Assembly: GCA_023269675.1 (NCBI GenBank)
Contig: JAHFSX010000020.1
Span: 6,550 to 70,549 of the forward strand
From: Verrucomicrobiota bacterium
Lineage (GTDB): Bacteria > Verrucomicrobiota > Kiritimatiellia > RFP12 > UBA1067
Length of the DNA stretch: 64,000 nucleotides
Reading direction: 5' to 3'
Below the pieces are notes generated by a model. That model had not been told where the DNA came from, ran no database searches, and saw only the letters and a list, made by a program, of their open reading frames with translations. Below, in pieces: positions 3,945 to 10,618 of this stretch. The number at the start of each line of letters is the position of its first letter. Positions within the stretch are counted from its first letter, which is position 1. Position numbers and translations under genes: made by a program.

Positions 3945-3949
3945 AAACC

Positions 3950-3980
3950 GACGCCCGCCCGTGGGCATCGTACGCGGGCC
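3950..3980 (+). repeat. Intercistronic hairpin unit R5 (no intact downstream gene)
   Basis: GACGCCCGCCCGTGGGCatcgtACGCGGGC, then a divergent sequence and a C10 tract. Confidence 0.8.
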
Positions 3981-4010
3981 GTCCCGTTATGTCCGTTCAT
4001 CCCCCCCCCC

Positions 4011-4095: not shown

Positions 4096-4332
4096 TCAAA
4101 GCCCGTGTTTTTTGTAAAGCTCAAGCCGCGTGGGGCACTTGCAGTAACGGGCGCCTCCGAAGGACTCCCTGTAAGGACACCGCGAGCCGGCCGGGCATTT
4201 GATGAAAAGGAGCTCCTTTCCGACATAATAATCGACCGTGCAGATGCATTTCCCGTCGCCCTTAAGGCACGCGAAATCCTTGTCACATCGCGTCGTCGCC
4301 CGCAAAGCCTGTTCGCTCACCTCGATGGCCAT
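4096..4332 (-). CDS. Small cysteine-rich protein (78 aa, 8 Cys), probably metal-binding
   Basis: MAIEVSEQALRATTRCDKDFACLKGDGKCICTVDYYVGKELLFIKCPAGSRCPYRESFGGARYCKCPTRLELYKKHGL. Has an SD-like GGGGGTG, plus its own promoter and terminator. Confidence 0.7.
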   Translation of the reverse strand: MAIEVSEQALRATTRCDKDFACLKGDGKCICTVDYYVGKELLFIKCPAGSRCPYRESFGGARYCKCPTRLELYKKHGL

Positions 4333-4434: not shown

Positions 4435-4462
4435 ATTATGCGGGGGGGGGTAAAATTGTCAA
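4435..4462 (-). promoter_or_regulatory. Sigma-70-like promoter TTGACA-N16-CATAAT with a C9 tract in the spacer
   Basis: Minus strand reads TTGACA(4462-4457)-attttaCCCCCCCCCg-CATAAT(4440-4435), about 100 nt upstream of the ATG at 4332. Confidence 0.6.
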
Positions 4463-4538
4463 CGGCTTATTTTATACGCCAAGTGCCTGATCGACAAGAA
4501 AGGCGAGTCGCGCGACAACGCCGCGCGGCAGCAAAGCC

Positions 4539-4582
4539 CCGCGCCCGACCGTGGGCCGGGTACGCGGGCAGATCGGACCGCC
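4539..4582 (+). repeat. Intercistronic hairpin+SD unit, copy R6
   Basis: CCGCGCCCGACCGTGGGCcgggtACGCGGGCAGATCGGACCGCC-ATG. Confidence 0.8.
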
Positions 4583-4738
4583 ATGAAAAAGAGACAGCAC
4601 ACCGTCACCCTGCCGGCAGTCGAGCCCGAGCCCGCCCTTTCTTTTCGCCCCCCAAAACGGTGCGCCTGCAGGGGTTCGCCATACTCGTTTGGATGGCTTA
4701 TAAACAGGTTATGCGCACACACACCAGAAGTAAACTAG
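4583..4738 (+). pseudogene. Truncated duplicate of the 5' end of gene 2771..3157
   Basis: ATGAAAAAGAGACAGCACACCGTCACCCTGCCG is identical to 2771-2803 (MKKRQHTVTLP). It diverges after ~17 codons and stops after 51 codons. Confidence 0.6.
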
Positions 4739-4814
4739 TTCTTGCCGGAAGACTGACCTCGAGTAAGTTTGTCTTCAACACCGGTATCTCTTAGGTTATG
4801 TTAAGTAATAGAAA

Positions 4815-5231
4815 TCAAGAAAAGGTGAACAATGCGTTCGAACTGCTTCCACAGATTTTCAACTCCAAGTTTTTAAGAAAATTCATTCCCAAGATCATAG
4901 AGTTGTTTGCCATTTTTACATTAGCAGGAGGGCCAAACTGCACACTTCCATTAACCCAATATATCTTTTTATGGCCAACGAACCTGCTGACAGCAAAAAG
5001 CACATCAATGCTATTCGACCCATTATTAGGCGATGGTAAACCGACCACGCCAGCCCATTGTGTCTGAATATGGTTATACGGAGTACAAGAAAAAAAAACC
5101 GTTTCTTGAAAGTAACTAACGGCAACAGGTTTTGACGTGTTATATGTGCTTGGAAGACAGGCGATACTCAATCGTATAGGAGCAATAGTATATTCGCTAG
5201 TCCTTAAATTCACACTCAACTTTTTAAACAT
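4815..5231 (-). CDS. Hypothetical protein (138 aa), second gene of low-GC cassette; possible degenerate retropepsin-like fold
   Basis: Start chosen at MFKKLSV because of GGAGAGAACG-ATG. The C-terminal motif ILGMNFL resembles the (I/L)LG(M/R)(D/N)(F/L)L motif of clan AA aspartic peptidases. No D(T/S)G triplet is seen. Confidence 0.55.
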   Translation of the reverse strand: MFKKLSVNLRTSEYTIAPIRLSIACLPSTYNTSKPVAVSYFQETVFFSCTPYNHIQTQWAGVVGLPSPNNGSNSIDVLFAVSRFVGHKKIYWVNGSVQFGPPANVKMANNSMILGMNFLKNLELKICGSSSNALFTFS

Positions 5232-5275
5232 CGTTCTCTCCGATTCCCGCCACGCCAACACCCCAGAATAATACC

Positions 5276-6232
5276 TTAAAGACCAGCATTCGTTACGTAA
5301 CAATCTTTGGTTGGTTTCAATTCTGTTCTGTCCAACTTAATAAATAATTGGCTCCAATCGGGCGCAGATTCTATGATACCCGCTTCCGTTACTGCTACGA
5401 CACTACCCTGATATTTTTTACATATGTCTTTCGTCCGATTACGTTGCCACCATAAAGCACCCATATCCGCAGGAGAGTGTTGGTCAAAAAAGACTCCATT
5501 AAATGATGAGTCAGTTCTCCATTCATCAAAGTCACTCAGGGAAGTCGCTATGTGACCGTCTGCCATTTGTTTAATCTGTGATGCGTAAAAAAGCGCTATC
5601 GATTTTCGCGAGGAAACAAAAACGCGACGTCTGATAGCTTGTTGTTCTTGGTGGTCTTCTTCGAAAGACAACTCGGCCGTCATTTTCTCGTCTTTAGTAA
5701 AGATTACCGATACAAAGTGTAAGGGCTCTCGGTCGCCGATGTTGATAACAACGCCTTTATCTGGGTGAGATAGCAATTTTTCTGCAAACGGATTGCCAGC
5801 AGCATCTTTCATGATCCTGGTCGAAGATGTAACAAGAAATCTGAATGAAGGTTCACTCAGACGTTCTTCGATCAGTTGAAGCGCCCTCTTTGTAAGAAAA
5901 ACGTCCTTGTGGAATGAGCCCACGTTTAAGAACAGAAAACTGTTTGGCTTGGAAAGACAATTTTCAACGTAGGCGGTTCTCTCTTCAGGGCCTTCCAGTT
6001 CAATCCTCAACTCATTTCCTTCAGCGAGTTCATTCGATCGAAGCTTGGACTCAATCTTATCCCAGTCGCTATCTGTTTTTGGAGAAAGATTGATTTTCCG
6101 ACGTTCAAAAAAGACGCTATATTTTTGTGCCGATGGCTCGGTAACCCTTTTTGACGAACTTCGCTGAAGCACGCGCACAAAGCCTTCTAGCTTCTGGCGA
6201 TAACAATCGATCTCCATCATGCGTAACTCCAT
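5276..6232 (-). CDS. Hypothetical protein (318 aa), first gene of low-GC cassette
   Basis: ORF track. Strong SD GAGGAGGGAGTC-ATG. I recognise no family. Confidence 0.7.
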   Translation of the reverse strand: MELRMMEIDCYRQKLEGFVRVLQRSSSKRVTEPSAQKYSVFFERRKINLSPKTDSDWDKIESKLRSNELAEGNELRIELEGPEERTAYVENCLSKPNSFLFLNVGSFHKDVFLTKRALQLIEERLSEPSFRFLVTSSTRIMKDAAGNPFAEKLLSHPDKGVVINIGDREPLHFVSVIFTKDEKMTAELSFEEDHQEQQAIRRRVFVSSRKSIALFYASQIKQMADGHIATSLSDFDEWRTDSSFNGVFFDQHSPADMGALWWQRNRTKDICKKYQGSVVAVTEAGIIESAPDWSQLFIKLDRTELKPTKDCYVTNAGL

Positions 6233-6310
6233 GACTCCCTCCTCTCGAATTCCAGTCGCAACTATCCTAGCTGTCCTGCCGAAGAGGCAACGTCATCTTC
6301 ATGCGGGGAT

Positions 6311-6340
6311 AGAATATCCCCCCCCGTGCTTCGAATGCAA
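6311..6340 (-). promoter_or_regulatory. Sigma-70-like promoter TTGCAT-N18-TATTCT with a G8 tract in the spacer
   Basis: Minus strand reads TTTTTTTTg-TTGCAT(6340-6335)-tcgaagcacGGGGGGGGa-TATTCT(6316-6311), about 80 nt upstream of the ATG at 6232. Confidence 0.55.
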
Positions 6341-6780
6341 CAAAAAAAACCAGCTTCATAATGTTGCCCATAGATGGAAACGTGCTTATGAAGAAGTGTG
6401 TGCCGGAAATAGTGGCATTGTTGTGTAAGTCTTGTGTGGTGAGTGTTGCGGATCAACAATTGTACTGTTTAAGGCATAACAGTAGTCATAATCTCTCTCA
6501 ACATGCCGTCCCTTTCCAGACATCCTCCGCCTTATCGGCAGGCGTTATTGAGAATCTCCGATTGACAACAGAACCGTAGCAAACTTTACTCCCCTGCTTC
6601 AAGCGTATATTTTGGTGTTTTTTCCCCAGGGATTGATACCGAATTGAATAGGTGAAGTTCCTATAGGTCGGAGGGGTGGCATACAAATCTGTTGATCTGA
6701 GTAGAGGGTGATTAGGGGGACGTATCACGGAAAAACGGACAAACAGGTTAGCTAATCCGTCCTCTCCCCCCCCCATACCG

Positions 6781-6814
6781 CACTAACGCAATAACGCACT
6801 AACGAACTTCTTCC
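6781..6814 (-). repeat. AT-rich octamer array at gene 3' end (island copy 1)
   Basis: + strand CACTAACG CAATAACG CACTAACG AACTTCTTCC. Encodes the tail KKFVSALLR* of the ASCH gene. Confidence 0.85.
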
Positions 6815-8301: not shown

Positions 8302-8346
8302 ATTCGCCGTCCTCCGGCCTCAGTCTTCTGACCTCATCCCTCTCCC

Positions 8347-8386
8347 CACTAATGCACTAATGAACTGACGAACTAATGAACTTCTC
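8347..8386 (-). repeat. AT-rich octamer array at gene 3' end (island copy 2)
   Basis: CACTAATG CACTAATG AACTGACG AACTAATG AACTTCTC. The stop of 8373..8600 lies inside it. Confidence 0.9.
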
Positions 8387-8600: not shown

Positions 8601-8643
8601 CGCCGTACTCCTTTCGCTGTCTTCCGTCCTCCGTCCCTAATCC

Positions 8644-8683
8644 CACTAATGCACTAATGAACTAACGGACTAAGGAACTTCCC
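8644..8683 (-). repeat. AT-rich octamer array at gene 3' end (island copy 3)
   Basis: CACTAATG CACTAATG AACTAACG GACTAAGG AACTTCCC. Confidence 0.9.
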
Positions 8684-8804: not shown

Positions 8805-8853
8805 GGGCGTTCAATCTCCTTCGCGTCTTAGCGCCTTCGCGATAGACACCTCC

Positions 8854-8893
8854 CACTAATGCACCAATGAACTAACGAACTAATGAACTTCTC
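8854..8893 (-). repeat. AT-rich octamer array at gene 3' end (island copy 4)
   Basis: CACTAATG CACCAATG AACTAACG AACTAATG AACTTCTC. Confidence 0.9.
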
Positions 8894-9227
8894 CCCCCCG
8901 TTTCAAATAACACATGTGCCAGATCGGATGATAATTACCGGCCGCCTCGTCGCCGTCCAGCAGCACCACCAGCCGCCCGGAACGGCCGCCCGTGATCACG
9001 CCCGGCCGGCCGTCGAACTCGACCCGCCGCCCGACCGTCGCCGGCACGCCGTAGGCGTTCCGGATATATTCGAGACCCTGCGCGGCGACCTGCGCGCGTT
9101 CACACGTTTTGCAGGTCACCTCCATATCCGAGCCGGGGACAACCACCTGGACGCCGGCCCGCGCGCGTCCGCAGAGCGTCATGCCCGCAGGGCCCGCGGC
9201 ATGGTTCACAAAACGGTAACCGCTCAT
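8880..9227 (-). CDS. Hypothetical protein (115 aa)
   Basis: Internal start MSGYRF, chosen for GGAGGTAATT-ATG. Ends ...GGEVH* inside the octamer array. Confidence 0.6.
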   Translation of the reverse strand: MSGYRFVNHAAGPAGMTLCGRARAGVQVVVPGSDMEVTCKTCERAQVAAQGLEYIRNAYGVPATVGRRVEFDGRPGVITGGRSGRLVVLLDGDEAAGNYHPIWHMCYLKRGGEVH

Positions 9228-9361
9228 AATTACCTCCTGCAGATCGGGTAAACCGCCGCGCAGGGCCGGATCGGACCTGTGAGACCGGTCCCCGCGCGGC
9301 TTTCCGGAACATCCGGAAATCAACTGCCGTCCAAGGCGTTCACCACTCTCCCGCATTGCCG

Positions 9362-9393
9362 CACTAATGAACTATGACACTAACGCCCTTCTC
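9362..9393 (-). repeat. AT-rich octamer array at gene 3' end (island copy 5, degenerate)
   Basis: CACTAATG AACTATGA CACTAACG CCCTTCTC. Confidence 0.75.
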
Positions 9394-10195: not shown

Positions 10196-10539
10196 TGCCT
10201 TTCAGCGCAATGTTTACACGGAACGACACTAAGTTGCTTCCGCGCGAGATCGCGGAAACAGCGTGCTGTTCCGTCCGCCAAGGAGCGGTCCGAGCGATCC
10301 CTTGTGGCTATGCGAGGCACGTTTCCCAAAACGGTCCGGGTAAAACGCCGGTCACCGGGCCCCGGCCAGGCCTCCCCGGCCGAAGTTATTTGTCGCGGGT
10401 TTTTTACCCGCGCTACCCCTCAAAACGGTATGGCAAAGGTATGACAAACAGGCTTCAAATATATCAAATCGGTACTGAAAAACGTCACTTTTTGACGCTT
10501 TTTCATCAAAAAAACCTCATTTTTGGTCAAAAACGCGCC

Positions 10540-10572
10540 TTGTCGCGGGTTCGAATCCCGTCCTCCCCGCCA
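10540..10572 (+). other. Orphan tRNA/tmRNA 3'-end fragment (T-arm, acceptor 3' strand, CCA); putative attR
   Basis: GCGGG-TTCGAAT-CCCGT-CCTCCCC-G-CCA. The same architecture as a tmRNA/tRNA 3' end. No complementary GGGGAGG 5' acceptor strand or other tRNA arms upstream. Confidence 0.7.
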
Positions 10573-10586
10573 TTCTTTTTTTAGAA

Positions 10587-10618
10587 CAGGTCACCTTCAC
10601 CGGTGGCCTGTTTTTTTT
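10587..10618 (+). terminator. Rho-independent terminator after the tRNA-like fragment
   Basis: CAGGTCACC-ttcacc-GGTGGCCTG followed by T8. Confidence 0.8.

Follow-up and report, generated by a model that had tools for sequence, protein, structure and literature searches.

The window, the whole 64,000-nucleotide stretch of a Verrucomicrobiota bacterium contig analysed here, contains two adjacent minus-strand genes, which we refer to as geneA and geneB. Both open reading frames were read from the sequence. The genes, their expression signals and the features around them are as follows.

5276–6232, minus strand: geneA, 318 aa, ATG start
5232–5275, minus strand: spacer of 44 nt between geneA and geneB
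4815–5231, minus strand: geneB, 138 aa, ATG start
6238–6242, minus strand: Shine-Dalgarno sequence GGAGG of geneA, 5 nt before the ATG
5236–5241, minus strand: Shine-Dalgarno sequence GGAGAG of geneB, 4 nt before the ATG
6233–6740, minus strand: low-GC leader of geneA, with its putative promoter region
4712–6740: low-GC block carrying the pair, about 2.03 kb, 36–48% GC
4702–4711 and 6741–6750: exact 10-nt direct repeat AAACAGGTTA, flanking the low-GC block
6780–6812, 8346–8386, 8643–8683, 8853–8893 and 9361–9393, minus-strand reading: copies of a repeat with a period of 8 nt
10535–10615 region: tRNA- or tmRNA-like 3' end fragment (T-arm and acceptor ending in CCA), with GGTTCGAATCCCGTCCTCCCCGCCA at 10548–10572

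An earlier note on this DNA had described a two-gene unit of unrecognised function with strong Shine-Dalgarno sequences on both genes, and this description holds: the frames, the 44-nt gap and both ribosome-binding sites are present as listed, and neither protein matches a family. A site scan found no terminator-like site in the spacer, and a TTG at 5303 offers an alternative start for geneB that would yield 162 aa. The arrangement is reproduced in an independent assembly (Logan SRR14366756, 2224 nt, hereafter L015), which is 100% identical to window positions 4586–6809 and in which both genes are called, each at 100% identity.

Several features suggest that geneB is likely a genuine gene and more than a chance open reading frame. 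Its open frame of 161 codons was matched in only 2 of 2000 shuffles of the AT-rich stretch, it scores best of the six frames under a codon model trained on geneA, with purines enriched at codon position 1, and its N-terminus (M-x-K-x-L) aligns with partner ORFs found at other loci. The 138-aa call is present only in the Logan assembly, and the NCBI and ENA sources that contain geneA do not list geneB, which thus seems to lack an annotation in the deposited genome record or to have been called there in another form. Positions 5090–5098 are an A9 run on the plus strand and T9 on the coding strand of geneB (codons GTT TTT TTT TCT); the run lies just before the conserved Cys49 and is a possible slippage site.

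The leader of geneA contains a G8 run (C8 on the plus strand, 6318–6325) and a T8 run (6342–6349), 86–117 nt upstream of the gene, and the earlier note had proposed a phase-variable promoter here. The runs are real, yet a promoter scan of the leader (6233–6740) returned nothing above threshold on the minus strand, and the tract lengths are identical in the window and L015; the proposal is not confirmed. A near-consensus sigma-70-type promoter (TTGACA-16 nt-CATAAT, 11 of 12 matches) does lie at 4435–4462 on the minus strand, with a C9 run (G9 on the plus strand, 4442–4450) in its spacer. A homopolymer in the spacer is the textbook arrangement of phase-variable promoters; this promoter faces a Cys-rich 78-aa ORF at 4096–4332 (minus strand), away from the geneA/geneB pair.

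The pair is foreign in composition, as had been claimed: GC content is 43.4% in geneA and 39.1% in geneB, compared with 64.9% for the window. The direct repeat AAACAGGTTA may be the insertion footprint of the low-GC block, and only its coincidence with the GC boundaries points there, with about three exact 10-nt direct repeats expected by chance in that stretch.

The block itself lies inside an integrated element, in agreement with the earlier reading of a prophage-like remnant. A stem-loop and a T-run (terminator) come directly after the tRNA-like 3' end GGTTCGAATCCCGTCCTCCCCGCCA, which is probably the att remnant that marks one end of the element. No intact tRNA or tmRNA was found anywhere in the window with ARAGORN and Rfam, and the other end of the element is therefore placed beyond position 1. 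Among the proteins encoded by the element are one of HTH_17 type that resembles excisionases, several with a ribbon-helix-helix and members of two PHROG families without an assigned function. A degenerate second copy of the tRNA-like 3' end is seen at 10390–10418.

The 8-nt-period repeat, which reads (TTAGTTCA/TTAGTGCA)n on the minus strand, occurs wherever two genes of the minus-strand operon meet. Each copy begins at or just past the stop codon of the preceding gene and leads up to a ribosome-binding site of GGGAG type, and because TAG recurs every 8 nt, the repeat places stops in all three frames. It is absent between geneA and geneB, which fits a later insertion of the cassette at the end of the operon. 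Repeats of another kind are found on the plus strand, where a GC-rich sequence of about 50 nt precedes the start codons of several genes (2476–2525, 2726–2775, 3947–3996 and 4537–4586). The segment 4578–4630 is a 94% copy of 2766–2818, where the 128-aa gene at 2771 begins, and leads into a truncated 51-aa ORF (4583–4738) that adjoins the low-GC cassette.

GeneA belongs to a very small family. It has no family match in Pfam, NCBIfam, PHROGs or PADLOC, and sequence and profile searches of the PDB with the whole protein or with its C-terminal extension found nothing. Word-indexed searches across 5.8 billion clusters yielded two relatives, and a full profile search with HMMER, covering 1.84 billion cluster representatives, defined a family of 12 proteins, none with a consistent Pfam match and none with a PLDc hit. 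Further genome and metagenome scans re-found the known loci only, and tblastn of geneA, of its relative P0010 and of the partner at locus L005 against curated phage and plasmid records gave no match. Six residues are invariant across the 12-sequence alignment (W57, G105, H172, F173, H194 and E196), and seven more are nearly so (S94, L100, G160, R168, L171, F190 and R201). The C-terminal extension of about 70 aa is common only to P0006; a suspected likeness to DUF5678 was dropped, as there is no Pfam hit at E<=10. Neither protein of the pair has membrane segments.

We examined the gene downstream of geneA in the window and in its relatives elsewhere, and found the following.

Window geneA: small ORF, 138 aa, 44 nt downstream
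P0004 (a Victivallales MAG): small ORF, 158 aa, 58 nt downstream
P0005: small ORF, 169 aa, overlapping by 4 nt
P0006: small ORF, 159 aa, 12 nt downstream
P0007: small ORF, at least 143 aa, 27 nt downstream
P0002 (locus L001): HD/HDIG protein, 320 aa, overlapping by 17 nt
P0008: HD/HDIG protein, 333 aa, 131 nt downstream
P0009: HD/HDIG protein, cut at the contig end, 54 nt downstream
P0011: probably HD, N-terminal 82 aa seen, 116 nt downstream
P0010, P0012 and P0013: no clear downstream partner

The pairing of geneA with a partner is conserved, and the type of partner is swapped between branches. A same-strand downstream gene lies within about 60 nt or overlaps in the window and for P0002, P0004, P0005, P0006, P0007 and P0009. 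The partner type tracks the geneA tree, with a small partner (138–169 aa) in five of the six members of the closer clade and an HD protein in the distant clade. The small partner was also considered as a domain of the HD partner, and this was rejected for want of any similarity between them. The earlier note had staked its reading on the two genes occurring together elsewhere; a linked small downstream ORF is found at four other loci, and the two that are readable resemble geneB.

Small partners were compared between the window (geneB), L003 and L005, which covers two of the four from other loci. Those at L003 and L005 are clearly related to one another, and geneB shares with them the N-terminus, two cysteines (C25 and C49 in geneB), an FA motif, a G(L/I/F)(P/A)xS motif 15 residues past the second cysteine and a C-terminal (I/V)(L/I)G-x-(N/D)(F/L). 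The three proteins are all basic (pI 9.1–9.8, with geneB at 9.6). GeneB scores 7.8 bits against an HMM of the L003 and L005 partners, a value reached by 5 of 5000 shuffles (p~0.001), and pairwise BLASTP with a partner ORF gives a weak E=0.035. It is 20–30 aa shorter than the other small partners and does not have their DLCQC motif.

GeneB by itself has no family in Pfam, NCBIfam, PHROGs or PADLOC and no sequence or profile hit in the PDB, and no relatives emerged when viral contigs were scanned with geneB, the partner alignment or the neighbouring 205-aa gene. The earlier note had called the protein beta-rich. The AlphaFold single-sequence model is all-strand but, at a pLDDT of 33, backs this description only weakly; geneB is probably beta-rich. 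It was also considered as a lipoprotein or membrane protein, which is ruled out as it has no hydrophobic segment and its 'SIAC' is not conserved in relatives.

The C-terminus of geneB, SMILGMNFLKNLELKI, contains the motif ILGMNFL, in which the earlier note saw a likeness to retropepsin-like peptidases while pointing out that the catalytic D(T/S)G is lacking. Both parts of this observation were confirmed, and the partner family conserves the motif. The C-terminal (I/V)(L/I)G-x-(D/N)(F/L)(L/I) and the strand after it resemble the 'LGMDFL' region of clan AA peptidases (bacterial APRc/ApRick, the Ddi1 RVP domain and HIV protease), and geneB is similar to these in size and predicted beta-richness. 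In contrast to them, the geneB family has no D(T/S)G, and a conserved cysteine lies roughly at the presumed place of the DTG loop. When the three-sequence geneB family was aligned by hhalign with six retropepsin-like domains (PDB alignments), only the last 24 columns aligned, with a probability of 23.5% and P=8.6e-4. Pfam aspartic-protease models gave no hit to geneB or the partners at E<=10, the single Asp of geneB (in SIDVLF) is not conserved, and geneB aligned with the partners from L003 and L005 shows no invariant acidic residue. An assignment of geneB as an aspartic peptidase was rejected, as it has neither D(T/S)G nor a conserved acidic residue.

The AlphaFold model of geneA, built from a three-sequence alignment, has a pLDDT of 59 overall and of 70–88 over residues ~50–240, which form a predicted alpha/beta core. 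A Foldseek search of the PDB with this model returned polyphosphate kinase PPK1, the PssA proteins of E. coli and H. influenzae, and vaccinia F13 as 16 of the top 17 hits, at a probability of 0.91–1.0; these matches are weak (E~1e-3, TM ~0.3, rmsd 6–19 Å) and come from one medium-quality model. PPK1, PssA and F13 share the fold of the phospholipase D (PLD) superfamily, which is also found in the defence proteins DrmC of DISARM and the PLD nuclease of Mokosh. Foldseek against viral structures (BFVD) gave nothing significant. The modelled fold of geneA is thus closest to the PLD superfamily, and a PLD-like protein with a non-canonical, His-centred site is the best lead, as distinct from membership in the superfamily.

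The single-domain PLD enzymes Nuc, Zucchini/PLD6 and NucT provide the nearest comparison. The predicted core of geneA resembles them in its order of strands and helices and in an invariant His on a central strand, and its best structural matches are to this superfamily; we infer that its secondary-structure order lays onto a single-domain Nuc-type PLD in the model, with H172 at the position of the HxK histidine. Unlike them, geneA does not keep the HKD motif HxK(x)4D(x)6G(S/T)xN: in the 12-sequence alignment the Lys, Asp and Asn are unconserved and there is no GSxN. Nor is there a Pfam PLDc hit or profile similarity to Nuc or Zucchini, and hhalign of the geneA family against the Nuc, Zucchini and NucT PLDs gave a probability of 0.3%. 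The extra conserved residues H194, E196, R168 and R201 suggest an active site of different make-up.

The relatives of geneA reside in varied surroundings. An integrase, a gene resembling Y1 transposases and a toxin-antitoxin pair (Gp49/HTH_37) are present at L003; another integrase is encoded 1.3 kb downstream on the contig of P0006; and P0002 is on a 416-kb contig listed in IMG/VR. One locus, L008, looks archaeal, with TrmB, PIN and DUF5679 genes. In the loci other than the window, the pair matches the local GC content, between 26% and 57% depending on the locus, and this range indicates that the family has spread by horizontal transfer across very different hosts.

The earlier note had taken the context of the pair to be that of anti-phage or superinfection-exclusion systems, and on this point our searches do not support it. 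With PADLOC-DB v2, the best match of geneA is one of 34 residues to SAVED2 at E=0.046, which is noise; geneB, the small partners and four of the five scanned geneA homologues have no hits, and the fifth, P0006, has only a noise-level match to PycC (E=0.011). The HD partners have weak matches only, to Cas3-HD or Cas10-HD, and the L001 HD partner matches HDIG and a c-di-GMP phosphodiesterase model. Among the neighbours in related loci, no PADLOC system was matched except for a generic helicase and the Gp49 toxin (NsnC models). The neighbourhoods are not enriched in recognised defence genes and contain mobile-element genes instead, such as the integrases and the Gp49/HTH pair. A literature search found no description of a matching system.

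We propose that the two genes form a cassette that was acquired horizontally and travels as cargo of the integrated mobile element. The geneA family would be its conserved core, probably a phosphodiesterase- or phosphotransferase-like protein with a PLD-like fold and a His/His-Glu/Arg site. The downstream partner would be exchangeable but tightly linked, an HD/HDIG phosphohydrolase or nuclease-type protein in other branches and, in the branch of the window, a small, basic, Cys-bearing protein, geneB, that is most likely a non-catalytic adaptor, regulator or sensor. Core and partner would act jointly on a nucleic-acid or nucleotide substrate; the choice of effector protein between them is, like the candidate catalytic residues, an inferred one. 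A conserved core with an exchangeable partner is a layout typical of conflict systems (defence, abortive infection, addiction), and our tentative reading, which we hold as quite possible, is that the cassette is a genetic-conflict module that benefits the element by defence or abortive infection. Two-gene conflict systems with a swappable effector resemble it in that a core gene is translationally coupled to alternative partners, here an HD enzyme or a small beta protein, and the cassette shares with them a patchy distribution and its carriage by mobile DNA, here integrative elements and one very large contig that is phage-like. They differ from it in that no component of the geneA pair matches PADLOC v2 and its neighbourhoods show no defence enrichment. 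A more elaborate version of this reading seems to us somewhat doubtful: a previously undescribed two-component conflict system whose core is a histidine-only, HKD-less offshoot of the PLD superfamily, and whose partner in the branch of the window, a new small beta-fold protein, keeps the retropepsin C-terminal strand motif with a conserved Cys in place of the catalytic Asp loop and serves either as a catalyst of a new type or as an adaptor derived from a protease.

Other explanations have to be weighed against a conflict role. A compact operon of two genes, which in relatives are closely spaced or overlap, would also suit a toxin-antitoxin or addiction module that stabilises the element, with geneA as a PLD-like nuclease or phosphodiesterase toxin and geneB as its neutraliser, or the reverse. 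The small partner is basic, and the genes are found on mobile elements, adjoining integrases and another toxin-antitoxin pair. But a 320–333-aa HD enzyme, the partner in three other loci and probably a fourth, is an unlikely antitoxin, neither protein has an HTH, RHH or AbrB domain, and no toxin-antitoxin family is matched in Pfam or NCBIfam; we regard such a module as unlikely. The nearest folds of geneA, PPK1 and phosphatidylserine synthase, are not nucleases, and they point to a different alternative, a non-conflict accessory moron that modifies or signals through nucleotides, polyphosphate or phospholipids. GeneA would then transfer or hydrolyse a phosphodiester and its partner, an HD-GYP-like phosphodiesterase elsewhere, would turn the product over. 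The c-di-GMP phosphodiesterase match of the L001 partner agrees with this, as does an ADxFDA...RPY-type motif identified in it by reading. However, the partner in the window has neither an HD domain nor conserved residues of a catalytic type, the lack of membrane segments gives nothing to suggest a lipid role, and extreme rarity with patchy spread suits selfish or conflict genes better, so that an accessory function of this kind also seems improbable.

It is further conceivable that geneB is a decaying or spurious ORF, which would leave geneA as a solitary orphan without a current function in its host. The restriction of the 138-aa call to the Logan assembly, while geneA is also in NCBI and ENA, would agree with this, and so would the weak similarity to partner ORFs, the T9 run within the coding sequence, the shorter length and the missing DLCQC motif. 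Against it stand the rarity of such a frame among shuffles and its best codon score of the six frames, together with a strong Shine-Dalgarno sequence, a conserved N-terminus, collinear motifs, and a position and charge shared with the partners at other loci, and we consider it very unlikely. The conflict module remains our preferred, if tentative, reading of the pair.

As judged by sequence, both families are undescribed; the modelled fold of geneA would be at most an HKD-less offshoot of the PLD superfamily, and the architecture resembles known two-gene mobile modules. If the pair is a working conflict module, it adds a system built from two protein families without described relatives, and the natural swap of partners, an HD enzyme for a small beta protein, could reveal which part senses and which acts. 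It would also mean that a PLD-like fold minus the HKD motif is still under selection across bacteria, archaeal-looking contigs and the 416-kb viral contig. If the pair has no such role, it is a well-delimited, recently inserted low-GC moron in a high-GC genome. Its practical value at present lies in the five or six natural operons that it provides for cloning and testing.

A minor observation concerns the viral contig. At 8991–9984 of L001, upstream of P0002, two adjacent genes (138 and 191 aa) share an N-terminal motif, MKHL..IQ.EF.K.A...QQ.YL.RH.KSK, and appear to be paralogues.
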